64,000 nt of DNA from Candidatus Micrarchaeota archaeon (GTDB lineage Archaea; Micrarchaeota; Micrarchaeia; Norongarragalinales; Norongarragalinaceae). Below the pieces are notes generated by a model that ran no database searches, was not told where the DNA came from, and saw nothing but the letters and a program-made list of their open reading frames with translations. The stretch is from contig JBBIMI010000001.1 of the NCBI GenBank assembly GCA_037444485.1, positions 15,526 to 79,525 of the forward strand. The letters are read 5' to 3'. A program made the position numbers and the translations under genes. This document shows, piece by piece, positions 8,465 through 33,726 of the stretch (position 1 is its first letter; every line of letters begins with the position of its first letter).

Positions 8465-8490
8465 CGGTTAGTGTGTATAATGTTATTCGG

Positions 8491-8607
8491 TTGGCGGCCA
8501 TAGGAGGGTGGAAACGCCCAGTCCCATTTCGAACCTGGAAGCTAAGCACCCTTACGACGTGGCGAGTACTGGAGTAATTCCGGGAAAGCCTGTTGCTGCC
8601 ACCACTC
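8491..8607 (+). rRNA. rrn5: 5S ribosomal RNA.
   Basis: ttggcggccatagg...gtcccatttcgaacc.ggaagctaagc...ggcgagtactg..gtaattccgggaa.gc..gctgccacc matches the archaeal 5S consensus, and the two ends pair. Exact ends are +/- 3 nt. Confidence 0.8.
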
Positions 8608-20950: not shown

Positions 20951-21662
20951 TCAAACCACCATTTATATATTTACAAGATTAACATTTTAAATAAAGTAGA
21001 TTTTGTTTATAAATTTATCTCTTATTAAGTGTTTTTTTATTTTATATTAATAAAATATAACTTTGTTGATGATGTAAATAAAATTTACAAAAATTAATGA
21101 ATAATGGGTTAGAGAGAGTTCTATTGCTTTTGTTGTGATCGTATGGTTTTGTGCGTGAGTAGTTTGCGTAGATTTTAAATTAAATAATTAAATTAAATAA
21201 TGTATTTTAGGGATTAAACTGCCTACTATGCAATTTTTCAAGTTGTTTTCCAAAAGTTTTTCAAAAAAATGCTTCGAATTGTGGCTATACCATAAATTAT
21301 GAATTTTAGAAAAAATTGTTGAAAAAATCGCTGATTTAAAAAATACGTAGCCGCATTCGTATTGCTGTGTTTGAAAACAAAAGTTTTATCCAACATTTTG
21401 CATTAAAAATAATTCGAATTGAGAAAACTGTGAGAAAACTAGCTAAACCCAGAAAATAAACCCAGAAAACTGCCTATTTTATTTTATTGTTATTTTGTTG
21501 TTTTTGTTGTTTTCGAGTTTAGGCAAAAGAATGCGTTCGAAATTCACTGAAATTAAATGAAAATAAATGAAAAATTAATGGAAGTTGGGTCGGCGAGCGT
21601 TTAAATGCAGTTCTGCACACTGTATTCCTCATGGTGTATTTTTCATGGAATTAGGTCTTTTC

Positions 21663-24428
21663 ATGGAATTAGGTCTGCGTCCAGAGGTAATGCGCCTCGT
21701 CAAAGCAAAAGGCTTCACCGAATGGACTGAAATTCAGGAAAAAGCGATTCCACTCGTGCTTGAAGGAAAAAATATTCTAGCAATAGCCCCAACTGGTTTT
21801 GGTAAAAGCGAAGTGGCTTTCTTAAGCATCTTGTCAAAAATCCTCGACGCACACGATGCAGGCGACAAACGCGGAATTAAAGCACTATACATTACTCCGT
21901 TGCGTGCTTTAAACCGGGATTTGATGGAACGCTTATTGTTTTGGACGCGCGTGCTCGGAATTTCGCTTGCTGTACGCCACGGCGACACTAGTGCGAGCGA
22001 GCGGGTAAAACAACGCGAGCAACCAGCAGAGCTTTTCATCACCACACCTGAAACTCTTCAATCAATGCTCGTAGCACCTAAACTCAAAGACGCGCTCTCC
22101 AACGTCAAGTTCGTAGTAATTGATGAAGTTCACGAACTCGTCGAAAGCAAGAGGGGTTTACAGCTCGAACTCGGACTTGAACGCTTGAGAGAAAAAGCAC
22201 CGAGTTTTCAGACGATTGGGTTAAGCGCGACTATAGGCGACGAAAAGGAAGCTGCGCGCTTCGTTGCACGCAACGCGATAGTCGTGAAATCTAGTGTTGA
22301 ACGCGGGTTGAAGGCAGGCGTCGAGTGCCCGGCGCAGCCGAAAACCGATGAGCTTGAAGAGTTGGGCGTAAGCAAGGAATCGCGGGCGAAACTCGAACGC
22401 GTTATGGATTTGATTGAAACACACTCGCGCACGCTATTGTTCGTAAATACGAGGTACGTCGCTGAATCACTTGGCAGCCTGTTGTTTGAAACGCGTTTGA
22501 AGGACGAGATTGCAGTCCACCACTCGTCGCTTTCGAGGGAAGCCAGGCTCGAGACGGAGAAAGAATTCAAGTCTTTCGGTGGAAAGCTGAAGACAATAAT
22601 ATGTACGAGCTCTCTCGAACTCGGCATCGATGTTGGAAGCATTGATTTAGTGATTCAATTCGTTTCCCCCAGGCAAGTGACGCGTTTTCTGCAACGCGTC
22701 GGGCGAAGCGGTCACAGCAAGCACTTGACACCCAAGGGTATTGTAATCGCTAACGACGCGCTCGACTGCTTCGAAAGCGCGGTCATCGTTTCCCGCGCGA
22801 AGAAAGGCTTGCTTGAACATCTTGAAATCCGTAAGAACGCGTTGGACGTCGTTGCACACCAGGCTGCTGGACTCGCGTTGGACTTCGAACAACTTACTGT
22901 CGATAAAGCTTTTTCGTTAATCAAACGCGCGCGTTCGTTCGAAACGCTTTCCATGCAGGAATTCATCGAAGTTTTAAAGCAGGCGAGCGACGCTGGAAAC
23001 ATTTCTTTCGACGGAACGCGTTTTTCAGCGAACAAGAAAACCAGGTTGTATTACTACGAAAACTTGTCGACGATCCGCGACGTGAGAAAGTACTTCGTGA
23101 AAGACGCGGACAAGCGTAAGAACGTCGGCGTTCTAGACGAAGACTTCGTTAACGAATACCTTTATCAGAATGCTACTTTCATCGCAAGCGGTAGAGCTTG
23201 GCGCGTACTAAGCATTTCAGACGATGAAGTAGTGGTTGAAGCAACTCGCGACTTTGGAGCCGCGATTCCGGATTGGGTTGGTGAAGAAATCCCGGTAACG
23301 CGCGAAGTCGCCGAACAAACAAGCGAACTCATCGCGGAACTAGGCAATGCGAAAGAAAGTGAAGAACTAGCGCAAGAACTTTCTTGTTCGCAAGACGCAT
23401 TGAAGAAAATGATTGAATTCGCGCGGGAACAAAAAAAATTCTTCGAATCAAAGGCCGGTGAGATAACAATTGAAACCAACAAAAACTTTGCAGTCGTGCA
23501 CTGTTTCGCTGGCACGAAAGCAAACGAAACTCTTTCCCGCGCGCTCGGCGCACTGCTTACCGCAAGCCTCGGCGCCAGCGTGCGAAGCAAAGCAAGCGCG
23601 TACGGCTTTCTCTTGGAATTCCCGAAAAACGTGGACGGTGAGAAACTCAAGCAAGCGCTGCAAGAATTGAGTGGACGCAGCCTGCGGGCTATTCTTGAAA
23701 ACGCGTTGCCGCACTCGACGCTCTTCCGCCACAAGTTCGTGGGCGTCGCGAAAGCGTTCGGAGTGCTGCGTAAGGACAGCGAGTTGGGCGGCTTCGGCGT
23801 GCGCCGGCTCGTTGAAGCGTTGTGGGGCACGCCGGTATTCAAGGAAGCGTTGGAAGAAACTTTCTTCGACAAACTAGACCTGCAGACAGCTGCCGAAGCT
23901 TTGGGACAAAAAATCTCGTTGATTCAAGGCCGTGGCGAGTGGTCGCCTCTTGCCAAGCAGTTCTTCAACTACGGTGCTTTCAGCGAATTGATGGTTCCAG
24001 CAGAGCCGAATTCTCAAGTAGTCCAAGCATTCAAGCAAGAACTCTTGGAAAAACGCGTCCGCTTGTTGTGCGCTTACTGCGGCAAGAAATTCGGGCGCAC
24101 GCTCAGCGACGACCGCGTGCTTGCGTGCCCGTACTGTAAATCAACGCAGTTGACTCTAGAGGAATACGGTGAAGTGCTCGAGAAGAAAAAAAGGAAACGA
24201 GAATTAAGCGAAGAAGAAAAACGCGGGTTGCGTGAAGCCAAACGCGTAGTTTCGCTAATCGCAGCGTACGGAAAACGCGCGTTGCTGGCGCTTGAAACGT
24301 TTGGCGTCGGACCCAAGAGCGCGTCGCGCGTTCTAGCGAGGCTTCATAAGACCGACGACGAGTTTTACGCGGACTTGCTGGAATCTCAAAAAAAGTTTAT
24401 TAAAACAAGGCGGTTCTGGCGGTTGTGA
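21663..24428 (+). CDS. lhr: Lhr-type superfamily-2 DEVH-box helicase with a C-terminal C4 zinc ribbon.
   Basis: Walker A APTGFGKS, DEVHEL, SATIGD, HHSSLSREARLETE..., QRVGRSGH. C-terminal CAYCGKK...CPYCKS. A tandem 18-bp duplication leaves the start ambiguous between ATG 21645 and 21663. Confidence 0.75.
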   Translation: MELGLRPEVMRLVKAKGFTEWTEIQEKAIPLVLEGKNILAIAPTGFGKSEVAFLSILSKILDAHDAGDKRGIKALYITPLRALNRDLMERLLFWTRVLGISLAVRHGDTSASERVKQREQPAELFITTPETLQSMLVAPKLKDALSNVKFVVIDEVHELVESKRGLQLELGLERLREKAPSFQTIGLSATIGDEKEAARFVARNAIVVKSSVERGLKAGVECPAQPKTDELEELGVSKESRAKLERVMDLIETHSRTLLFVNTRYVAESLGSLLFETRLKDEIAVHHSSLSREARLETEKEFKSFGGKLKTIICTSSLELGIDVGSIDLVIQFVSPRQVTRFLQRVGRSGHSKHLTPKGIVIANDALDCFESAVIVSRAKKGLLEHLEIRKNALDVVAHQAAGLALDFEQLTVDKAFSLIKRARSFETLSMQEFIEVLKQASDAGNISFDGTRFSANKKTRLYYYENLSTIRDVRKYFVKDADKRKNVGVLDEDFVNEYLYQNATFIASGRAWRVLSISDDEVVVEATRDFGAAIPDWVGEEIPVTREVAEQTSELIAELGNAKESEELAQELSCSQDALKKMIEFAREQKKFFESKAGEITIETNKNFAVVHCFAGTKANETLSRALGALLTASLGASVRSKASAYGFLLEFPKNVDGEKLKQALQELSGRSLRAILENALPHSTLFRHKFVGVAKAFGVLRKDSELGGFGVRRLVEALWGTPVFKEALEETFFDKLDLQTAAEALGQKISLIQGRGEWSPLAKQFFNYGAFSELMVPAEPNSQVVQAFKQELLEKRVRLLCAYCGKKFGRTLSDDRVLACPYCKSTQLTLEEYGEVLEKKKRKRELSEEEKRGLREAKRVVSLIAAYGKRALLALETFGVGPKSASRVLARLHKTDDEFYADLLESQKKFIKTRRFWRL

Positions 24429-24586
24429 TTCTTGCTGTTGTAACTGTTAACTGCAAGCTCCGAAATTCTTTTTCCGCTTTCGCTGGCGCGGCGGCTCGCA
24501 AGTTTCAACGAATTCGTAATTTTCTTCGCTCGGCGGCTCGCGTTCTTCCAACTTTTTCTTGCGCACTTCAACTATTTTCGGCTTCG

Positions 24587-25057
24587 TCAACCCACTACCC
24601 TCGGTTTTCTGGTGATTACTGTTTCATTCAACGCGTTCGGGTGCATCGCAAAATAATCAGCTGCTTCCTTGTTTAACGCGTCGTTCGGATTCGGTTTTTC
24701 GAGTAATTGCTTTAACGCTTTTACTAGGCTCACTAGCGTCGTGCCTTCACTCCACTCGTTTAAAAGCTGAATGCATACTTTTCCGTCTTCGCTGCGAATG
24801 TTCGGGTGAAAGATTGGAGTCAACCAAGTGACTTCGATTCCGCCAGCGTAAGGGTATTCGCGCTTCAAATCGATTTGAATAGAGTGCGACTCGCGTTTTT
24901 GTAGCGAGTCCCCGTTCTTAAACAAGCTGACGCCGCGCAAGCTTATTACGTAACTCGTCTTCGACTCGTTAACCTCAAAATTTTCTTTGCTGGCAACCAT
25001 TTGTTGAAACTCGCTTTCAAGCCTGCGTCTCCAAATCGCTTCAGGAAGCATTGGCAT
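24587..25057 (-). CDS. Ubiquitin-conjugating enzyme (E2, UBC fold)-like protein.
   Basis: FHPNIRSEDGKVCIQLLNEWSEGTTLVSLVKALKQLLEKPNPNDALNKEAADYF fits the E2 HPN motif, catalytic Cys and PNP..P.N.EAA signature. Confidence 0.75.
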   Translation of the reverse strand: MPMLPEAIWRRRLESEFQQMVASKENFEVNESKTSYVISLRGVSLFKNGDSLQKRESHSIQIDLKREYPYAGGIEVTWLTPIFHPNIRSEDGKVCIQLLNEWSEGTTLVSLVKALKQLLEKPNPNDALNKEAADYFAMHPNALNETVITRKPRVVG

Positions 25058-25095
25058 TACAGACTACCTCGAAAAAACAGTTGAATGATTTGACT

Positions 25096-25359
25096 TCAAC
25101 CGCCAGTCGGATCAGGCATCAACAGCAAACGACTCCCTTCCTTTAAACCAGCGTCTGCCACCGTAATTTCAGGATTCAAAACCTTATCATCAACAGTAGA
25201 TAAAACAAAACGGTCTTTTAATTGAAGGTTTTCAGCGAGCACTTCCAAAACAGAGCTGATTGTGAAGCCCGGCTCTACCGCAACAACTATTTCCTTCCCG
25301 CTCGTGGTATGCGTTACTGTAATGTTGAATTCTTTCGAAGGCGAACTTTCCGATTCCAT
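25096..25359 (-). CDS. Ubiquitin-like beta-grasp modifier ending in a free Gly-Gly.
   Basis: 87 aa. FNITVTHTTSGKEIVVAVEPGFTISSVLEVLAENLQL...LKEGSRLLLMPDPTGG* aligns in pattern with ubiquitin and terminates in GG-stop. Confidence 0.6.
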   Translation of the reverse strand: MESESSPSKEFNITVTHTTSGKEIVVAVEPGFTISSVLEVLAENLQLKDRFVLSTVDDKVLNPEITVADAGLKEGSRLLLMPDPTGG

Positions 25360-25459
25360 GCAAAAACCACCTCAATTAAAGCACGTTAGTTAAAGCAAAA
25401 GATATTTGAACACAATATAATAATAAGTGTTGCGGTGAACAAAAGAGGTTTTTAAACCC

Positions 25460-25936
25460 GTGAATGAAGAAAAGAAAAAACCAAAGACAATAAGTGAGAA
25501 AGACGCGGTTCAAGAAGCTGGCGTTAAAGAAACCGTTGAAGAAGAAAGCAAGGAAACCGCTGAATCTAAAAACGAAAACACTAAAGAGGCGGAAAAACAA
25601 CTAGTGGAAACAAGTGAAACGAGTAAAACAAGCGAAAAAGAAGAGAAGAAGCCTAGAGTGAAAGTCGTTGTAGAACCAGTTTTCGGCGAACGCGGAACAA
25701 AACCCGTCATAACCGTCACTAGCGAGAAACCGCGTTTAGTGCGTGAAGTAGAAGAACAAGCTGCTCGAGACGTTCTGCCAACACAATCTCCGCCGGGCAC
25801 GCCGTTAGAAGCGCGGAAACCCTTGACGCGTGAAGAAGTAGTTGAGAAAGCGAAACAGGTTTGGGAAGAGAACAAGCGGAAAAAAAGTGAAGGTAAGTTC
25901 TTCAACCGCTTAAAACGCGCGTTGAAACTCGGTTAA
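25460..25936 (+). CDS. Highly charged (E/K-rich), probably disordered protein upstream of the JAMM gene.
   Basis: 158-aa ORF. Low-complexity KETAESKNENTKEAEKQ is followed by a short conserved-looking PVFGERGTKPVITV segment. Confidence 0.35.
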   Translation: MNEEKKKPKTISEKDAVQEAGVKETVEEESKETAESKNENTKEAEKQLVETSETSKTSEKEEKKPRVKVVVEPVFGERGTKPVITVTSEKPRLVREVEEQAARDVLPTQSPPGTPLEARKPLTREEVVEKAKQVWEENKRKKSEGKFFNRLKRALKLG

Positions 25937-25955
25937 AGTTGTTTAAAGCGGTGAA

Positions 25956-26417
25956 TTGATGTTCGAGGTTTACGTTCACGAGAAAGTCTTAAAGAAAGCT
26001 GAAAAACACTGCGCACGCGAAGCAGAGAGAGGACTAGAAGCGATGGGTTTGCTTTTGGGAAACGCGTTCACGCACAAGGGCCGTGAGTACGTTGTAGTCG
26101 AAGACTATTCCACTGGCGAGAATGAAGCAACAAGCGTTTCGGTGCGCTTTACGAAGAAAGCGTTTTCTAAACTCGCGAAAGACTTCGAGGAAGGTGGACG
26201 CATAATCGTTGGTTGGAGCCACGCACACCCGTCTTACGGTTGCTTCCTCTCAGCAACAGACTTGAAGACTCAAAACAATTACTTTAACGAAGATTTCCAC
26301 GTCGCGCTCGTCATAGACCCAACGCACAAAACGTCGAACGGTTTTGAAAAAAAGTTTTTCAAACTCTGCGCTGAAGGCTACCGCGAAGCTTCCTACGCGG
26401 TAATCAAAGAAAAGTGA
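25956..26417 (+). CDS. JAMM/MPN+ metalloprotease (Rpn11-like isopeptidase).
   Basis: EAMGLLLG ... VGWSHAHPSYGCFLSATD gives the E-x(n)-H-x-H-x7-S-x2-D JAMM motif. Confidence 0.8.
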   Translation: MMFEVYVHEKVLKKAEKHCAREAERGLEAMGLLLGNAFTHKGREYVVVEDYSTGENEATSVSVRFTKKAFSKLAKDFEEGGRIIVGWSHAHPSYGCFLSATDLKTQNNYFNEDFHVALVIDPTHKTSNGFEKKFFKLCAEGYREASYAVIKEK

Positions 26418-27427
26418 AAAAAATGCTTGGACAAAGCGAGACGCAGGAAAAAAACGCGAACGCACCCGCTGCTGCTGGCGCGTCAGCCGCAACTCCAGCG
26501 GCGAAGACGACAGTAAAGACAATGGTGGAGACGCGCAGAAAGAAAGCAGTCGTAAAGAAAACCGCGATTAAGATAACTAAGTTTGATAAAGCGCTCGCGC
26601 AACAAATAATTTTAGGCGAAACTAACCTAAAGAAAATCCAGGAAAAAATGCGTGTCGACGAAAAACAATTTTTTGAACGCGTGAAGAAACTAGGCGACGC
26701 TGGTTACATTGTTATTAATGAATCAAGGGAAGCCTGGTTTGGAATAAAAGGCTTTGAAGCCTTCGCCAACCAATTCAAGAAACTTGCGTCTACGCCGACG
26801 CCGAAATCCCGCGCGCGACTGGAAGAAACGCCCTCCGCGGCGCAAGCACCGCAAGCGCAGCAGACGCCAGCGCAGCAAGCGCAGCAGACGCAACAAACGC
26901 AGTCTCCCTTCACACAGCCCACGGTTCCGCCTGCGTTAGACCCTAGGCAAACTTTTCTTGCTGAAGCGACTGCAAAAGAAAAAGATGAGGTCAACGTCGA
27001 CTTGAGCGAATTGCTTAAAAAAGGTGCTCCTAAACCAAGCGACTCGATTTTCGTAAAACGCCAAAACGAAAAATCTTCTAGAGTGCTCTCTCGCGCGTTT
27101 GAAACAATTAAAACCAAGGATCCTGCAAAAGTCTCGACTGCAGGAGAATTAATTGAAGCGATTAAGAAAAGTAAGCCGAGCAGAGAGGCGTTGATGGTTG
27201 ACGGCGGCGAGGCTTGCGAATTGTGTAAAGCAAATTTTAAACTCGCTGTTGCAGGAGACGGCAACCCAAAGTACGGCCACTGCTTCTGCGGAGCAGCCTA
27301 CCATAAAGACTGTTACGAGTCCCTCGCAGGCAACAGCGGAAAATGCGTGCGCTGCGGCAAGAAACTCAAACTCGAGTTAAGCAAACAAAGCGAAGAAGCG
27401 GTTAAAGAAATAAAGGAATTATTCTGA
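26414..27427 (+). CDS. C4HC3 RING-like (treble-clef) zinc-finger protein and candidate E3. It has an N-terminal alpha-helical domain and a Q/A/P-rich linker.
   Basis: C-terminal C-x2-C-x17-H-C-x-C-x4-H-x2-C-x10-C-x2-C (CELCKANF...GHCFCGAAYHKDCYESLAGNSGKCVRCGK). The start overlaps the JAMM stop (GTG 26414 or ATG 26423). Confidence 0.55.
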   Translation: MKKMLGQSETQEKNANAPAAAGASAATPAAKTTVKTMVETRRKKAVVKKTAIKITKFDKALAQQIILGETNLKKIQEKMRVDEKQFFERVKKLGDAGYIVINESREAWFGIKGFEAFANQFKKLASTPTPKSRARLEETPSAAQAPQAQQTPAQQAQQTQQTQSPFTQPTVPPALDPRQTFLAEATAKEKDEVNVDLSELLKKGAPKPSDSIFVKRQNEKSSRVLSRAFETIKTKDPAKVSTAGELIEAIKKSKPSREALMVDGGEACELCKANFKLAVAGDGNPKYGHCFCGAAYHKDCYESLAGNSGKCVRCGKKLKLELSKQSEEAVKEIKELF

Positions 27428-27465
27428 GAAAGCGTGAAGTACCCTAAAATACTGGGTTCCGACTT

Positions 27466-28227
27466 TCAATGCACTGGGCAACTAACGCGTTTCGGAACTT
27501 CAAACAACCGTGCAGTCGACTTCAAACCGTCCAGAAAGAGGAACTTGCCTGCAAGCGTTTTCTCGCCGAAAGAATCACTGTGCACGAGCTTCAAAAACTC
27601 GTTCACTTGAATTCCTGCAACAACGCTCGTCGTCGTCGGAAGCGCCGGATTCTTTGGGTTAATCCAATCAACTAACTCTCCCACACAATTGTACTTTTGC
27701 CACAAAAGCTTGTAATCGCTTTTACTCAACCCGCACTCGAGACACGAAGAAGGAGCGCGCACTACTTGCACTTTCCCGAAAAACCCGGTTGTTCCCCCGT
27801 CAATCAAAGGAATCTTGCTGTAACACTGGGCGTTCAAATGCAGTCTCGCACCCAAGTTGTCGAGACAACCGAAAGCGTAATCGAAATTTTCGTAAAAATC
27901 TTCAGGAAGTTCTTCAATCTTCTCAGTGAAAACGCGTACCTCGGCAGTCGGATTGATTCTTGCAGCTTCGCGTTTTACCACATCAACCTTCGGCAAGCCC
28001 ACGTCTCCCTCGCTAAAGAAAACACAGCGATTCAAGTTCGCTTTCACAATCGAATCGAAGTCTACAAGCGAAATGTTTTTTACGCCGAGTTGAAGCAAGA
28101 GCTTGACGACTTCATTTCCAAGCGCGCCAGCGCCGACTACAAGCACGCGCGCCTCCGCGACTTCAGTCTGCCTCCAACCCTTCACGCGCTTTTGCCTATC
28201 GTGAACGTCCTCATCAATCGCAACCAT
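27466..28227 (-). CDS. E1-like ubiquitin/Ubl-activating enzyme (ThiF/MoeB/UBA family) with a zinc site.
   Basis: VLVVGAGALGNEV Rossmann motif, GCLDNLGARLHLNAQC catalytic segment, CLECG...CPVH zinc ligands. Confidence 0.75.
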   Translation of the reverse strand: MVAIDEDVHDRQKRVKGWRQTEVAEARVLVVGAGALGNEVVKLLLQLGVKNISLVDFDSIVKANLNRCVFFSEGDVGLPKVDVVKREAARINPTAEVRVFTEKIEELPEDFYENFDYAFGCLDNLGARLHLNAQCYSKIPLIDGGTTGFFGKVQVVRAPSSCLECGLSKSDYKLLWQKYNCVGELVDWINPKNPALPTTTSVVAGIQVNEFLKLVHSDSFGEKTLAGKFLFLDGLKSTARLFEVPKRVSCPVH

Positions 28228-28278
28228 AATGCTATTTTTAACAATCGTTCTTTAAAACAATATTAGGGAAACAAAAAA

Positions 28279-29070
28279 ATGCCTTTGATTCTCTACACTA
28301 CGGAAGACATTGCGGGAACGAACGCCGCGCGCATTCTGAAAGAAAATTATGGCTTTAAACAAACTGAAGACTTGCAGATTAAAGACAAGACCTTCAAAAC
28401 CTGGTATGACCATGAAATCCAACTGATCGAACTAAATACGCGCCTGGCGTTCGACAGCAACTGGCTCAATGATTACTTCGCGAGCGACTTGCTCGTGTTT
28501 GCTTCCCGCCACTGCAGTGAAACAAGTAAACCCTGCCTTACCACGCACACTACTGGCGATTGGGCCAGCGGCGAATTGAGTGCAACCAGCGCGTTCGCCG
28601 TAAAAACCGCTTTCTTGTTCTTCAAACAAAACCCGCTTGAAGGATTTAGCGTTTCACTGGAAGCAACCCACCACCAGCCTTGGAATTTAACCACCCCCTC
28701 ACTCTTCATTGAAGTTGGAAGCAGCGAAAACGAGTGGCGCGACGAAAGAGCTTGCGCGCTCTTAGCAGAATGCGTTATTGAAACAGCGAAAAACTATTCG
28801 AATGCGAGCGGAAAAAGCGCGTTAGGGTTCGGCGCCGGCCACTATGCGCCAACGTTCAACGAACTCGAAGCAAGCGATTACAGTTTTTCATTCATTGCTC
28901 CAAAACACTCACTCGACTTCGTAACAACTAATTTAATCAAGCAAGCAGTTGCAAAAACGCGTGAAGGCGTTGAAGTAGCAGCAATCGATTGGAAGGGCTG
29001 CAGCGGCGAGCAACGCAAGAAAGTGATTCAAGCTTGCGAAGAAATCAGCTTGCCTTGGGAGAAGGTTTAA
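28279..29070 (+). CDS. dtdA: Archaeal-type D-aminoacyl-tRNA deacylase (DtdA)-like protein.
   Basis: SRHCSE...TTHTTGDW...EATHHQP segments resemble the archaeal tRNA_deacylase family. This call is from memory and uncertain. Confidence 0.45.
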   Translation: MPLILYTTEDIAGTNAARILKENYGFKQTEDLQIKDKTFKTWYDHEIQLIELNTRLAFDSNWLNDYFASDLLVFASRHCSETSKPCLTTHTTGDWASGELSATSAFAVKTAFLFFKQNPLEGFSVSLEATHHQPWNLTTPSLFIEVGSSENEWRDERACALLAECVIETAKNYSNASGKSALGFGAGHYAPTFNELEASDYSFSFIAPKHSLDFVTTNLIKQAVAKTREGVEVAAIDWKGCSGEQRKKVIQACEEISLPWEKV

Positions 29071-29122
29071 TTAGACAACGCGTTTTAAACATTTTAAATA
29101 ATTTGCAACCAAAACTGATTGC

Positions 29123-29686
29123 ATGGACGAGTATAAAGACAAACACAAAGGCGCGCAGCGACTCTATGTTTGCGACGAGCGTGGAAACACTAGCGGCGAG
29201 ATCGTAGAACGATGGAAAGCCCACACTACGCCTGGAGTCAAACACTTGGCTTTCGGAATTCTTGTTTTAAACGAAAAAAACGAGATAGTCTTACACAAGC
29301 GGCCAGCGCGCAAAGTCGGCGGCGGGGTTCTGGACATTCCCGTCAGCCACATTCTTGAAGGCGAAACTAGAGAACAAGCCATGAACCGTTGCTTGAAAGA
29401 AGAATACGGCATAACCGCAAAACGCTTCGAGCATTACCCCGGCTTTTCGTATTATGAAGAGTATCCTGACGGAACTTGCGAAAACGAGTACTGCTTGATA
29501 AGCGTGATAAGACACGAAGGCAAGTTTAAACCCAACCCGGAGGAAGTTGAAGGCGAACTAAAAGTTTTTCCAGCAAGTAAAGTCGTCAAAGAAATAAGAA
29601 AACATCCGCGGAAATACTCTATTTGGTTTAGGAAAGCGATAGAATTGTTAGCCAACGACGAGCGCGGCAGAAAACATTTGGTTTAA
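29123..29686 (+). CDS. idi: Isopentenyl-diphosphate delta-isomerase type 1 (Nudix family).
   Basis: HLAFGILVLNEKNEIVLHKRPARK..G.LDIPVSHILEGETREQAMNRCLKEEYGI...GTCENEYCLISV parallels E. coli Idi (HLAFS.WLFN...GHP..GE..A..RR...ELG...ENEVCPVF). Confidence 0.6.
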   Translation: MDEYKDKHKGAQRLYVCDERGNTSGEIVERWKAHTTPGVKHLAFGILVLNEKNEIVLHKRPARKVGGGVLDIPVSHILEGETREQAMNRCLKEEYGITAKRFEHYPGFSYYEEYPDGTCENEYCLISVIRHEGKFKPNPEEVEGELKVFPASKVVKEIRKHPRKYSIWFRKAIELLANDERGRKHLV

Positions 29687-29718: not shown

Positions 29719-30966
29719 TTATCGATTGAAAATAATCTCCATGCTTTCCGGCTCCAAGCGCACGCCTTCATTACTCACACCCAAATTAAGGACTTCAATC
29801 TTTTTTTCCTTATAACCGCGCCAGAATTCGCGCACTTTTTCCGCAGACTCTTCGCTTAAGCATATCGCGGCTATCGAGTCGCCGCCGCCAGCGCCTGGAA
29901 GCTTGGCGACGAAAGCGCCGTGCTTAAGCGATTCGTTGACGAGTTTGCTTAGTGTCGGGGGCTCTATTGGGGCGCCGCTTTTTTCGCCTAGTTCGCGCGT
30001 TAATTCGCGCCCGCGTTCGAATTCTTGTTTGAAGCGCGTGAATAACTCGAGTTCGCTTGATGGTTTTTGTGGTTTCTGTGTGGTTTTCTTTGATTCGGCG
30101 AGCGTGAGGGTTTTGGCGTAAAGCGAAGGGTTTTGTTTCGCGAGCGCATTGATTTTTTCGAGTAAAGCTATTGCTTTCGCGTTTGCTTCGTTGAGTTCCC
30201 GCATTAAATTCGCGTACTCTTGCGGGTTTGTTGTTTTCCACGCGTTTATTTTTTTAACCATTTCGCTGGTTGAAGCGCTTTCGCCGGCAATGTTTCCGAC
30301 TACTGCGGTGAAGGAGGGCGGCATTGCGAGTGGTTTTGAAGAGTAATCCCAAGCGCTCTCTAGAGCTTCCAGAAAGTCTTTCTTCTTTAAGATGCTTGGG
30401 CTGTAACGCGAGTAAACGTGTCCGCCGTAAGTTGCGGCGGCAACGTCGAAACCGCTGCCTATCTTGCCTTGCGCCACGCAGTGAACCAACTGCGCTGTTT
30501 TGTGCAGTAATTCTTTTTCTTTTAACGCGTCGATTCCGTGAAGCGCGAGTACCGCGGCTGTCGAGGCTACTGTGACTGCTGCTGAAGCGCCGAGTCCGGC
30601 TTTAGTAGCGCCTAGTCCGAATGCTGGGTCGCTGAACGTGGTTAATTCTATTCCGTTGAAAGAAATGTTTTTGCGGATAAAGTAATTGAAGCAAGTTTCG
30701 ACGGCGCCCCGCATGAATTTTGTGGCTGAATCTTGTTCTGGGGTTAACGGGTTTTTGAAAACCAGTTTGTTTAACTCGAATGCTGCTTCAGCGAACGCGT
30801 TGAATTGCGGGGCGTTTAACACGACCTTGTTTTCGTCAAGCTTTCGCGCGCGCACGAAAACGCGTTTGTTTACTCCGGTAACGAAGGAAACATTTGGTTT
30901 TTCGAGAACCGAATACCCGCCAATCCAAAGTATTTTCCCGGGCGCTGACGCAATGCAAGAATTCAT
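29719..30966 (-). CDS. Phosphomevalonate kinase (GHMP kinase, ERG8-like).
   Basis: SAPGKILWIGGYSVLE N-terminal signature of PMK. GHMP motif GLGASAAVTVA. Confidence 0.7.
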   Translation of the reverse strand: MNSCIASAPGKILWIGGYSVLEKPNVSFVTGVNKRVFVRARKLDENKVVLNAPQFNAFAEAAFELNKLVFKNPLTPEQDSATKFMRGAVETCFNYFIRKNISFNGIELTTFSDPAFGLGATKAGLGASAAVTVASTAAVLALHGIDALKEKELLHKTAQLVHCVAQGKIGSGFDVAAATYGGHVYSRYSPSILKKKDFLEALESAWDYSSKPLAMPPSFTAVVGNIAGESASTSEMVKKINAWKTTNPQEYANLMRELNEANAKAIALLEKINALAKQNPSLYAKTLTLAESKKTTQKPQKPSSELELFTRFKQEFERGRELTRELGEKSGAPIEPPTLSKLVNESLKHGAFVAKLPGAGGGDSIAAICLSEESAEKVREFWRGYKEKKIEVLNLGVSNEGVRLEPESMEIIFNR

Positions 30967-30970
30967 TTCA

Positions 30971-31738
30971 CTACCTTCTCAAGACTTCCTTCAACACTTG
31001 TTTAGCGTTTTCAAGAATAAAATCAGCTTGTTTTGCGAGTTCTTCACGCTTGCTGTTTCCAGTTAAAACGCCTATTGTTTTCACTCCAGCTCGTTTTCCA
31101 GCAATTATTCCTGCAAGCGAATCCTCTACGAGAACAACTTCTTGAGGGAAAACGCCTAGTTTTTTTAACGCGTAGTTTATCATTGACGGGCTTGGTTTTT
31201 CCTTTAAACGTTTTTCCTTCAAACCAGCGTCTTCAGTAACCAGCAAATCAACTTTAAAACCGAATTTCTTAATTAACGATGAAGCAAACAGTTTGTTGGC
31301 GTTCGTGATTATCACGGTTTTAAAGCCTTTATTACGCAGTTGTTTCAACAAACTCGCGGAACCCTGAATTTTTTTCGCGAGGTTCAAGAGTCTTCCAGGA
31401 TTCCTGCGAATTCTAGAGTACTCGCGGACAGCGACTTCACTTTCAACAAGTTCAGCTTTAGAAAGATTGTTTACCGCCTTGCGTAGTTTTACGCGTGTCG
31501 CTTGAAGACGCGCTCCGCTTCCCGCTTTCTTAATGCCTAACTTGTTTAAAGCGATGAGCGCTTTAAAAAAATCTTGTTTTTTATGAAACTCTGGAAGAGA
31601 GCGAATCGCGTAAACGTCGCGCACTCGAAAACACGGTTTTACGCCGGCGTGCGCTAAGGCTTTCTCTACAACCTTTTCTTGAAACCTACCGTAATCCACT
31701 AGCACTCCTTCGAGGTCGAAAAAAACGGCGCGAATCAA
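30971..31738 (-). CDS. HAD-superfamily hydrolase.
   Basis: VFFDLEGVLVD motif I and ITNANK/GVKTIG..TGN later HAD motifs. Sits between the MDD and PMK genes on the same strand. Confidence 0.65.
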   Translation of the reverse strand: MIRAVFFDLEGVLVDYGRFQEKVVEKALAHAGVKPCFRVRDVYAIRSLPEFHKKQDFFKALIALNKLGIKKAGSGARLQATRVKLRKAVNNLSKAELVESEVAVREYSRIRRNPGRLLNLAKKIQGSASLLKQLRNKGFKTVIITNANKLFASSLIKKFGFKVDLLVTEDAGLKEKRLKEKPSPSMINYALKKLGVFPQEVVLVEDSLAGIIAGKRAGVKTIGVLTGNSKREELAKQADFILENAKQVLKEVLRR

Positions 31739-31754
31739 ACGCAGACACCAACCT

Positions 31755-32828
31755 TTATTTCACGATTATTCTGCCGCTTGCCTCATCATACCAGTGTTCG
31801 CGAATGTTGCCGCTTGAGTCAAGCAAGTGTTCGTTAACGTACTTCGGCCCAAAACCAACTTTGCAAACCAGTATTTTCTGAACGCCTTCAACTTCAGCCA
31901 AAACTTTTTTTACTTCATCAACGTGTTTTTCAACAGTAAAAACGTGAGCGTTGGGGCCAGCGTCGAAAGTGTAACCAGCCTTTATTTCGCCCGCAGCGTT
32001 GTTAAAGTCTATTATTGAAGCCATTATTTGTTTTGAAACGTCGTTCAAATACGTTATTGGCGGCCACGTGTCGAGCATTACCGCGTGCATGTTGCTTGAT
32101 TCACGCATAGTCGCTTCGAGAAGCGTCGGCAAGTCTTTGCGTAGAATCGCGTTGCGCACGGTTTCAAGAGTCTTCGGCAAGTCTCGAAGCCGCTTTTGAT
32201 AAAGACTGCTTGTCGCCACCGTCTGCTTCATTCCAGCGCGAGAAGAAATTTTTTTCTTTCCTTGCTCTACGATTGCAATCACGTTACGCAACTCCAGCCA
32301 ATGCGACGGCGGCGCGATTTGAATTGCTAACGAATCGCTGCCGTCGCTCTTGACTCCGCGTTTCCACTCGACGAAACCGCCGAGAACACTGCGGCAAGCG
32401 CTGCCTGAACCCAAGCGCGCGAGAATAGATAATTCGCTTGAAGACAAGTTGAGGCCGGCTGCTTTGGAAGCAGCGCAAGCAAGCGCAGCCAAGCCGGCAG
32501 CGCTTGACGCGAAGCCAGCCGCGGTCGGAAAACAATTGAGTGAAACTATTCTTGCTTTTGCGTTTATTCCGGCTTTTTCTCGAATGACGTTCAATTGTTG
32601 CATGCGTTCAGCTGTTTCCTTGTCGTTCAAGTCAAGCTTTCTTCCATTCAACCAAACTTCGTCTTCCGCGAATTTTTCTGAAAACATGACGGTCGTACGC
32701 GTTTTCAGCGTTTCATCCATAGTCACAGAAATGCTTCCTTCCTGCGGCAGAATCAGTTTTTCGTCGCGTTTCCCCCAGTATTTTACTAACGCGATGTTTG
32801 CAGTTGCTTCAACAGTTGAAATACTCAT
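31755..32828 (-). CDS. mvd: Diphosphomevalonate decarboxylase.
   Basis: ANIALVKYWGKRDE signature. GHMP GFASSAAGLAALA. Confidence 0.8.
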   Translation of the reverse strand: MSISTVEATANIALVKYWGKRDEKLILPQEGSISVTMDETLKTRTTVMFSEKFAEDEVWLNGRKLDLNDKETAERMQQLNVIREKAGINAKARIVSLNCFPTAAGFASSAAGLAALACAASKAAGLNLSSSELSILARLGSGSACRSVLGGFVEWKRGVKSDGSDSLAIQIAPPSHWLELRNVIAIVEQGKKKISSRAGMKQTVATSSLYQKRLRDLPKTLETVRNAILRKDLPTLLEATMRESSNMHAVMLDTWPPITYLNDVSKQIMASIIDFNNAAGEIKAGYTFDAGPNAHVFTVEKHVDEVKKVLAEVEGVQKILVCKVGFGPKYVNEHLLDSSGNIREHWYDEASGRIIVK

Positions 32829-33726
32829 TTAATCCCCCCTCGCTGCGTTTCAAGAGTTCTTTAACGTAATTGATTGAGTCAAACAGTATTCTGCGCTCGC
32901 ACGCATTTAATCGTTTATCTTCAGCGAAAAGCTTTAAATCGCGTTCGAAAAAACGCTTGAATTTTTTAACTGCTTGTTTTTCTGGAATGCGTTTCTTTCC
33001 ACAATCGTAAAAAAAGTTTAACACTGCTAATGCGCCGACACGTTTCAACCAACTGCGGACAAGCGGGTTTTCAACCCCGGCCTCCCGCTGCAAAACACGC
33101 ACGTACTCGGAAACAAAGCTTAAAGAATCGCGCGCTTCAGGAAAAACTTGCAACAACAACCGGCCAGCAGAACTTTTCAAAAACGTTTTCGACTTACGCA
33201 AGCGTTTTTTGTAGTAAGAGATTATTGTTGCAGCGTTGAGAGGCGCGCCGCTCTCGCCGAGATACAAGTTTCTTCGAAAAACAATGTGTTCCGCAAACTG
33301 GTCTAGTTTGTCAGCTGCCTTCAATGCTCGCCCTACAAGGGAAGAAACACGTTTCACTCTCCGAAAACCATTCGGGGAAAGCCCAAACGAATGCGAAGCG
33401 ATAGCGTCACAAACCAATTTCACTTCTTCAACCGAAAAACCGTATTTCGGCAGTATGCTTGCAGCCGCTTGCGCGGAAGCGACTTCATGCTCGTCCGCTA
33501 AACCCATCTTTTTTAAAAGGTTTTCAGGAATCCGCAGCCAATCGTGAAACAAGCCGGCTATAAATCCAAGTTCCTGCTCACGCAGCGAACCACCGCCTTT
33601 TTTTACGAGCTCGCGAGTCAAAAGCGCTACGGGCAGGATGTGCTCGCGCCAAGAGTGAACCTTCGAATGCAATCCCTTCCGCGTTCTCTCCTCGTAATGC
33701 TTTTCAGCAAAACTAGTCAATTTCAT
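32809..33726 (-). CDS. HD-domain-like hypothetical protein.
   Basis: HSWREHILPVALLTREL ... GLFHDWLRIPE ... D. 305-aa ORF. The 3' end overlaps the mvd start by about 20 nt. Confidence 0.4.
   Translation of the reverse strand: MKLTSFAEKHYEERTRKGLHSKVHSWREHILPVALLTRELVKKGGGSLREQELGFIAGLFHDWLRIPENLLKKMGLADEHEVASAQAAASILPKYGFSVEEVKLVCDAIASHSFGLSPNGFRRVKRVSSLVGRALKAADKLDQFAEHIVFRRNLYLGESGAPLNAATIISYYKKRLRKSKTFLKSSAGRLLLQVFPEARDSLSFVSEYVRVLQREAGVENPLVRSWLKRVGALAVLNFFYDCGKKRIPEKQAVKKFKRFFERDLKLFAEDKRLNACERRILFDSINYVKELLKRSEGGLNEYFNC

Follow-up and report, generated by a model that had tools for sequence, protein, structure and literature searches.

Does the genome of a tiny-celled archaeon of the Micrarchaeota encode its own ubiquitin ligase, and by what means would such a ligase reach its targets? 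The question is raised by a stretch of 64,000 nucleotides of contig JBBIMI010000001.1 from a Candidatus Micrarchaeota archaeon, hereafter called the window, in which a gene for a JAMM-type isopeptidase is immediately followed by an open reading frame (ORF) for a 337-amino-acid protein with a RING-like, cysteine-rich C-terminus. An original prediction, made from the sequence alone, had described the two genes as translationally coupled and the 337-residue product as an unusual, multi-domain putative E3. In the present analysis, the best explanation, to which we give a probability of about 60%, is that a ubiquitin cassette of eukaryote-like composition, conserved across Micrarchaeota, has the 337-residue protein as its RING-type E3, and that this protein is targeted via a winged helix.

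Among archaea, eukaryote-like ubiquitylation has been analysed biochemically only for the Caldiarchaeum operon, and most discussion of it centres on Aigarchaeota and Asgard archaea (PMC5654768, PMC6043591, PMC11354881); a 2024 review cites Caldiarchaeum and Asgard only (PMC11354881). A Micrarchaeota ubiquitin system or an archaeal E3 with a winged helix and a RING was not found in our literature search; the 2011 survey of prokaryotic RING fingers, which lay outside that search, may hold a description. The locus carries a complete set of ubiquitin-like modifier (Ubl), E1, UBC-type E2, RING and JAMM genes, strongly conserved throughout a DPANN phylum whose genomes are very small, and because it is complete and conserved despite that genome size the cassette should be important to Micrarchaeota cells. 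Target selection in this cassette probably falls to the 337-residue protein, acting as its ligase. Its putative targeting domain thus offers a rare, testable handle on substrates, the physiological substrates being unknown even for Caldiarchaeum, and the placing of E3 and deubiquitylase in one putative translational unit is relevant to the evolution of writer/eraser pairs.

The protein family and its zinc domain

A search of 5.8 billion proteins with the 337-residue sequence gave 113 homologous clusters at E<=5e-18, most of which cover about 85% of the query. Every cluster with a taxon name is assigned to Candidatus Micrarchaeota, Micrarchaeia or Norongarragalinales. All are annotated as 'hypothetical', except for one with the JGI label 'DNA-binding Lrp family transcriptional regulator', and none of the 113 carries a precomputed Pfam domain. 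Since there are 113 homologous clusters, and since in 40 of 46 independent loci the RING gene again starts right at the end of the JAMM gene, the ORF is not due to chance; it is a real gene, and it founds a sharply bounded Micrarchaeota family.

From the alignment of 46 full-length family members (A1) and the AlphaFold model, the modules follow in the order of a variable acidic, low-complexity N-terminal tail with a Lys/Arg-rich stretch, a winged helix-turn-helix (wHTH), a linker with a short conserved motif, a zinc domain and a helix. The multi-domain organization of the original prediction is therefore confirmed in the form of a wHTH, a variable linker and a C4HC3 zinc domain. When 1.84 billion representatives were searched with a profile of the C-terminal domain, 72 proteins matched with E<1e-10, followed by a sharp drop to E>1e-5. 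These 72 proteins are about 150-420 amino acids long with the zinc domain at the extreme C-terminus, and the few shorter entries (70-98 amino acids) resemble fragments. Because the matches end in this sharp drop, the zinc domain is, as judged from the profile, limited to this architecture and lineage.

The zinc domain, a predicted C4HC3 RING variant, occupies residues 266-318 (27209..27367, plus strand), with the pattern C268-x2-C271-x17-H289-C290-x-C292-x4-H297-x2-C300-x10-C311-x2-C314. The cysteine/histidine pattern had been given exactly in the original prediction and needs one refinement. Eight of the 113 homologues have Tyr or Asn in place of H289, which is for this reason excluded as a ligand, leaving C268, C271, C290, C292, H297, C300, C311 and C314, so that the set remains C4HC3. 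These eight residues are invariant or nearly so among the 113 homologues (C290 is His in one).

The relationship to RING domains was indicated by several independent comparisons. When 55 domains of the family were scanned individually against Pfam, 54 matched Prok-RING_1 (best E 2e-4) and 50 matched zf-RING_2 (best E 6e-5), RING families being far commoner than any PHD family. The family profile, compared with the sequences of all solved structures, retrieved almost exclusively RINGs, first AMFR/gp78 (E=0.013) and then Pirh2, RNF24, EL5 and CWC24, together with one weak PHD-like entry. The alignment with AMFR pairs C292 with the third RING ligand and Ala294 with the fourth-ligand His of RING-H2 domains, and this register explains the two-residue shift of ligands 3 and 4. 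The zinc domain was re-modelled alone with 55 sequences, and with this domain-only model both fold searches returned only RING/U-box domains, E2-binding ligases, among which were RNF4 dimers and the RINGs of Nse1. In the structure comparison with RING, RING-CH and PHD folds proposed in the original prediction, RING/U-box folds were thus returned and a cross-brace was predicted; the three-dimensional RING/U-box fold was recovered in a model of moderate confidence, and the same model gave no sign of a non-RING zinc ribbon. The C-terminal eight-ligand domain is accordingly predicted to adopt the RING cross-brace fold.

Other zinc-binding folds were considered. Zinc ribbon and FYVE/C1 readings were rejected, as both fold searches gave RING/U-box domains only and RING families dominated the per-member Pfam matches. 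A RINGv/RING-CH (MARCH type) reading was set aside as well: its consensus is C4HC3 with C-x-C-x7-H, and here C-x-C is present, the spacing to His is 4, not 7, and the sole MARCH-type RING among the fold matches, 2d8s, ranked 31st (Foldseek probability 0.35). The PHD consensus is likewise C4HC3, with C3-x2-4-C4, four to five residues before His and an aromatic residue before C7. A PHD or treble-clef reader of peptides or Ubl would make the 337-residue protein a non-catalytic scaffold, localising JAMM or conjugates without activating E2. The C4HC3 ligand set, the x4 spacing before His, weak matches to PHD_2 and PHDvar_NSD in a few members, and the tight pairing with JAMM, which would suit a protease adaptor, are in line with such a reader. 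The spacing C3-x1-C4, the lack of a conserved aromatic residue two positions before C311 and the absence of PHD domains from the top fold matches led us to reject the PHD assignment, and we consider a reader function highly improbable. We therefore class the zinc domain as a new subfamily within the RING superfamily, outside Prok-RING_1 and the other Pfam RING families. This RING variant has been missed by public annotation, whereas the partner E2s make the system visible in databases, many of them in Micrarchaeota being already named ubiquitin-conjugating enzyme E2 or ubiquitin ligase.

For the positions equivalent to the E2 contacts of RING domains, assignment was by ligand register and not from a complex. 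Position C1+2 (L270) is L/I in 113/113 homologues, C6+4 (L304) is L/I/V/M in 110/113 and C7+1 (V312) is V/I/A/L in 112/113. The basic residues near the last ligand pair are also kept, R313 at C7+2 as R in 103/113 and K316 at C8+2 as K/R in 112/113, while C8+1 (G315), the usual linchpin position, is G in 113/113. These conserved contact-equivalent residues, together with the UBC-type E2 encoded nearby, fit an E2-RING pair and are consistent with E2 binding by the RING domain.

The cassette and the JAMM-RING junction

A scan of one genome per species, with the window proteins placed by tblastn, identified 48 loci, all in Micrarchaeota. The gene order is near-constant: Lhr helicase (plus), E2 (minus), Ubl (minus), a low-complexity protein (plus, not at every locus), JAMM (plus), wHTH-RING (plus), E1 (minus) and D-aminoacyl-tRNA deacylase (plus). 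In the window this syntenic block spans 21585..29686, and the closest relatives add a gene resembling Nudix/isopentenyl-diphosphate isomerase. No other E3 candidate was found in the conserved block of the 48 loci. Because synteny extends over the entire block in many species of Micrarchaeota, the ubiquitin cassette belongs to the stable chromosomal backbone and not to an island. By PADLOC only generic, superfamily-level JAB and E1 matches were obtained, the E2, Ubl, RING and disordered proteins being unmatched. A role in anti-phage defence was rejected on the basis of this generic similarity and the fixed synteny in 48 genomes, which together suggest a housekeeping system rather than a mobile defence island. 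A functional link to the neighbouring Lhr helicase was also set aside, as it is indicated by synteny only and the genes for the deacylase and the Nudix protein are equally syntenic.

The presumed partner of the RING is a UBC-type E2 of 156 amino acids (24587..25057, minus strand; Pfam UQ_con 1.3e-19, above the gathering score). It has the HPN...C active-site motif, which is present in all related loci, and carries a 'PY' in the loop-4 region as read from the sequence; its best solved relatives are the eukaryotic Ubc1, Rad6 and UBE2N. Next to it is the gene for the Ubl, 87 amino acids (25096..25359, minus strand), with weak matches to the Rad60-SLD and ubiquitin families of Pfam. The Ubl ends with ...PDPTGG followed directly by the stop codon, and this mature GG-stop end is found in 35/43 loci, a few others having one or two extra residues after GG. 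The E1-like ThiF/MoeB adenylyltransferase of 253 amino acids (27466..28227, minus strand; Pfam ThiF 2.6e-51) is convergent with the RING gene and consists of the ThiF/MoeB fold alone, too short to include a C-terminal ubiquitin-fold domain of the kind that would present the E2. E1 lies downstream of the RING gene in 43/48 loci, and 41 of these 43 have it on the opposite strand.

The JAMM/MPN+ metalloprotease of Rpn11/CSN5 type (153 amino acids; 25956..26417, plus strand; Pfam JAB 1.7e-12) has an intact catalytic E28 and HxH-x7-S-x2-D motif ('GWSHAHPSYGCFLSATD', read from the sequence). Among proteins of solved structure it is closest to the Rpn11-like protein of Caldiarchaeum (6fjv, 1.1e-12), CSN5 and Rpn11. 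Since 35/43 loci encode a Ubl with the GG-stop end, JAMM is not needed for Ubl maturation in most lineages and is likelier to be a deconjugase; within the cassette we assign it, as probable, the deconjugating role.

The plus-strand operon opens with a gene for a K/E-rich, probably disordered protein of 158 amino acids (25460..25936), for which no family match was found. Positional counterparts of 82-440 amino acids are present in most of the 44 loci examined and have in common the motifs 'KPR(I/V)V', 'EQA(S/A)RD(I/V)LP' and 'GFFxKLKxxLGF'. The conserved C-terminal tail is basic and amphipathic ('GKFFNRLKRALKLG' in the window, 'KKKGFLQKLFGG' in locus L013), which we take to resemble a membrane-targeting helix of MinD type. 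The protein may add a sixth, membrane-associated part to the cassette or be one of its substrates.

The wHTH-linker-RING gene was identified from the ORF list, the sequence and the homologues at 26414..27427 (plus strand), giving 337 amino acids from a GTG start. The tetranucleotide GTGA at 26414-26417 combines this GTG with the TGA stop of JAMM. An alternative start, ATG at 26423, lies 5 nucleotides past the JAMM stop and gives 334 amino acids; the closest homologues (P0003 and P0005) begin at the position of this ATG. The choice between GTG 26414 and ATG 26423 is ambiguous, and the JAMM and RING genes abut either way. Both ORFs were found where the original prediction had placed them, with the JAMM stop overlapping the start region of the RING ORF. 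By the nearest in-frame start, 40/46 loci have the RING gene beginning between -11 and +17 nucleotides from the end of JAMM (median +1), with overlap of start and stop in 20/46; the remaining 6/46 have a gap of 38-83 nucleotides or an overlap of 50 nucleotides. Wherever a locus includes upstream sequence, the gene directly 5' of RING is JAMM, and both are on one strand. The Ubl-to-JAMM interval, by contrast, varies from 320 to more than 5000 nucleotides. Because the abutment is kept in 40/46 loci while this other interval varies, it is a conserved property of the JAMM-RING pair.

Many JAMM genes are purine-rich at the 3' end, just before the RING start (AGGAAGAAA, GAGAAGAAG; AGGAAG, GAGAAG or AAAGAAAAG), AAAGAAAAG being the purine-rich run at the 3' end of the window's own JAMM gene (26390..26417). 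Such a run could serve as an embedded ribosome-binding site.

Of the co-translation claimed in the original prediction, the structural part stands: the conserved abutment in 40/46 loci supports co-expression. Translational coupling in the proper sense would be a further step, suggested by the junction. The abutment could instead reflect genome compaction in a small DPANN genome, the RING gene initiating independently and no partnership existing between JAMM and RING. The ambiguous start in the window (GTG overlap or ATG at +5), the lack of a visible strong Shine-Dalgarno sequence upstream of GTG or ATG and the 6/46 loci with longer gaps or overlap would be expected under compaction. Order, orientation and abutment are, however, kept in 40/46 loci among proteins only 26-40% identical, the other gaps of the same cassette differ widely in length, and a purine-rich stretch closes many JAMM genes right before the RING start. 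On this balance compaction is an improbable explanation of the junction; it bears on coupling alone.

Beyond the cassette, the window contains a stand-alone 5S rRNA gene at 8490..8604 (plus strand; Rfam, 79 bits), the sole Rfam family detected in the 64 kb at gathering thresholds. The minus-strand genes at 29719..33726 resemble, by eye, mevalonate-pathway enzymes (GHMP-kinase-like and diphosphomevalonate-decarboxylase-like), which would fit an archaeal host.

The winged helix, the linker and a proposed mode of action

The original prediction had noted an N-terminal helical domain. The compact domain is present, and its description is refined to a wHTH of Lrp/AsnC/MarR/DtxR type by AlphaFold, Foldseek and a profile comparison with PDB sequences; it covers residues ~50-126 (26561..26791, plus strand). 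The AlphaFold predicted local distance difference test (pLDDT) is 95-98 over residues 51-120. In a Foldseek search of the PDB the top 50 matches were almost all DNA-binding wHTH regulators (best probability 1.0), including MtsR, DtxR, MntR, MarR, IclR and the centromere-binding AspA. The family profile matched the sequences of Pyrococcus Lrp/AsnC-type regulators, PH0140 among them, with E=0.002, the alignment covering the conserved F-D...G...R-x-x-x-L positions, and individual members gave scattered matches to TrmB, MarR_2, HTH_24 and related Pfam families. On these models and profiles, the N-terminal domain is a winged helix of the type used by archaeal DNA-binding regulators. Adjoining it on the N side is the Lys/Arg-rich stretch of residues ~40-54 ('ETRRKKAVVKKTAIK'; 26531..26575, plus strand), of which the sequence varies and the basic character is conserved in A1. 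It may act as a nucleic-acid-binding arm.

A low-complexity Q/A/P-rich linker follows at residues ~127-195 (26792..26998, plus strand), predicted to be disordered (pLDDT <50). This spacer had been predicted as such; in A1 neither its length nor its sequence is conserved among homologues. Within the otherwise unconserved linker region lies the motif D196-L-S-E-L-L-K-K-G-A-P206 (26999..27031, plus strand), recognized from the A1 consensus and an AlphaFold helix at 197-204. The family consensus in A1 is D-L-x-E-L-L-x-K-G-x-P, with D196 nearly invariant, and we regard it as a candidate docking motif for a partner. Beyond the zinc domain, a conserved C-terminal helix ('SEEAVKEIKELF'; 27377..27424, plus strand) has the A2 consensus 'SEEAVKxIKxxF', with F at >=90% and at or beside the C-terminus. 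The helix is predicted in both the full-length and the domain-only models, with low pLDDT (53-59). RNF4, BIRC7 and similar RING ligases that act as dimers use an aromatic residue at the C-terminus to touch the ubiquitin of the partner's E2~Ub.

The divergent promoter between Ubl and the plus-strand operon contains, in loci L034, L012, L043, L042, L038, L023, L024 and L027, a palindrome GCGAAAG-n-ATATTAAT-n-CTTTCGC around a TATA-like element. Such 'GCGAAAGnATATTAATnCCTTTCGC'-like palindromes may represent a symmetric bidirectional promoter, with a TATA element between two B recognition elements (BRE-TATA-BRE), or could be an operator. Inverted repeats with 7-nucleotide arms occur in the divergent promoter of 33/44 loci, as compared with 26.5/44 in shuffled sequences, which is not significant. 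An autoregulatory operator was rejected, being absent from the window promoter and its repeats not being enriched over shuffles across loci.

The winged helix raises the alternative that the 337-residue protein works chiefly as a transcription factor, either autoregulating the cassette or with a wider role, the zinc domain serving for dimerisation, sensing or Ubl binding instead of E2 activation. Ubiquitylation would then run on E1 and E2 alone, and the Caldiarchaeum E1 and E2 do self-modify without E3 (PMC5654768). The N-terminal domain is of Lrp/AsnC/MarR type, as in archaeal regulators, one homologue is labelled 'DNA-binding Lrp family transcriptional regulator', and some loci have the palindromes around the TATA-like element. 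On the other side, the fold search gave only E2-binding RING/U-box ligase domains, the hydrophobic positions equivalent to E2 contacts are kept in at least 110 of the 113 members, the Lrp effector (RAM) domain is missing, and the palindromes are not above the shuffled level and do not occur in the window. A transcription factor without ligase activity is, in our estimate, unlikely.

Several observations nevertheless weigh against a RING-type E3 targeted via its winged helix, and the first of them would also suit a transcription factor. All RING Pfam scores are below the gathering cut-off in every one of the 55 domains; the window protein scores 18.2 bits against a cut-off of 29.1 for Prok-RING_1, and 12.8 against 27.3 for zf-RING_2. 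The spacing C-x-C-x4-H is not the canonical C-x-H-x2-C/H. The zinc domain is poor in the full-length AlphaFold model (pLDDT 42-73), and re-modelling of the domain alone reached moderate confidence. At C8+1, the usual position of the linchpin Arg, the family has its invariant Gly. The recognition helix of the wHTH opens with conserved acidic residues (V-D-x-x-E-F in A1), which is untypical for DNA contact, and no operator-like inverted repeat was found in the window's own Ubl/operon promoter region.

If the 337-residue protein is the ligase of the cassette, its mode of action can be sketched as follows. E1 would activate the already mature Ubl at its GG end and load it onto the active-site Cys of the UBC-type E2. 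Docking of E2~Ubl by the RING would be via L270, L304 and V312, and K316 or R313 may help to bring E2~Ubl into a closed form from which the Ubl is discharged onto lysine. The basic stretch and the winged helix would anchor the ligase on DNA, other nucleic acid or a partner, so that it could modify proteins bound nearby or itself; the long flexible linker would set the reach, and the D-L-x-E-L-L-x-K-G-x-P helix probably binds another cassette component. JAMM, from the same message and made together with the ligase, would reverse the modification rather than mature the Ubl. In this scheme E2 binding, ligase activity, DNA binding, the partnership with JAMM and the nature of the substrates are inferred.

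A more specific proposal, which we put forward tentatively and with considerable doubt, is that the cassette is a nucleic-acid- or chromatin-anchored module, in which the RING E3 held by its wHTH and the co-made JAMM write and erase a Ubl mark on DNA-bound proteins. Possible targets would be histones, Alba, or transcription and repair factors such as the neighbouring Lhr helicase. If true, location-directed ubiquitin signalling would exist outside the Asgard-eukaryote line, in a DPANN archaeon.

Comparison with known systems

The closest characterised system is the operon of Caldiarchaeum and Asgard archaea (PMC5654768; Fuchs et al. 2018, PMC6043591). Both systems cluster genes for a Ubl, an E1-like enzyme, a UBC-type E2, a RING protein and an Rpn11-like JAMM. 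The Caldiarchaeum E3, the 'small RING finger protein' (srfp) of RING-H2 type, is required for E1/E2-dependent ubiquitylation in vitro, and PY67/68 of its E2 is needed for the E3-dependent reaction (PMC5654768); the window E2 likewise has 'PY' in the loop-4 region. In contrast to the small, single-domain srfp, the E3 proposed here has 337 amino acids and three conserved modules including a wHTH, with a long linker, and its RING is C4HC3 with C-x-C-x4-H. As the characterised E3 is small and of RING-H2 type (PMC5654768), a multi-domain E3 carrying in addition a wHTH and a long linker is unusual, in agreement with the original prediction. The modifier also differs, as CsUb of Caldiarchaeum carries a 9-residue propeptide that is removed by Rpn11 (PMC5654768), whereas the Ubl here is mature (GG-stop). 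The E1 of 253 amino acids recalls the 'cluster III' E1s, which are without a C-terminal Ubl domain (PMC5654768). JAMM here abuts the E3 gene upstream on the same strand, whereas that of Caldiarchaeum is divergently transcribed beside the operon. The host is a DPANN archaeon, while the Caldiarchaeum system is from Aigarchaeota and others are from Asgard.

Prokaryotic RING fingers (Prok-RING_1, PF14446) were reportedly linked to Ubl/E1/E2/JAB neighbourhoods by Burroughs, Iyer and Aravind in 2011. Prok-RING_1 is the family matched by most members (54/55) and has the same kind of gene neighbourhood; the window domain is below its cut-off, and the Micrarchaeota family forms an isolated cluster among 1.84 billion representatives. 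The best profile and structure matches are eukaryotic RING-H2 ligases (AMFR/gp78, EL5, RNF4, RNF165 and the Listerin RING), with which the domain has in common hydrophobic residues at the E2-contact positions and a basic one close to the final pair of ligands. Unlike them, it has ligands 3 and 4 as C-x-C shifted by two residues, Ala294 at the position of the fourth-ligand His, and Gly at C8+1. The Cap2/Cap3 proteins of CBASS and the Bil systems are alike at the superfamily level in their E1-like and JAB components; unlike these systems, the present cassette occupies a fixed chromosomal site beside the Lhr and D-aminoacyl-tRNA deacylase genes in 48 species.

For the N-terminal half, the nearest likeness by wHTH fold and profile match is to the Lrp/AsnC and MarR/DtxR regulators, of which the effector or dimerisation domain (RAM for Lrp) is absent here and replaced by the linker and the RING. 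Nse1 of the SMC5/6 complex consists of winged helices followed by a C4HC3 RING-like domain. It has tandem winged helices, as compared with one wHTH and a long disordered linker in the window protein, and its partners are those of an SMC complex instead of a ubiquitin cassette; the likeness is one of analogy only. Cullin-WHB/Rbx1 with CSN5 presents a loose architectural likeness, again by analogy. If the anchored module proposed above is true, the combination of winged helix, RING and JAMM would represent a minimal functional analogue of the cullin(WHB)-RING/COP9 signalosome system or of Nse1.

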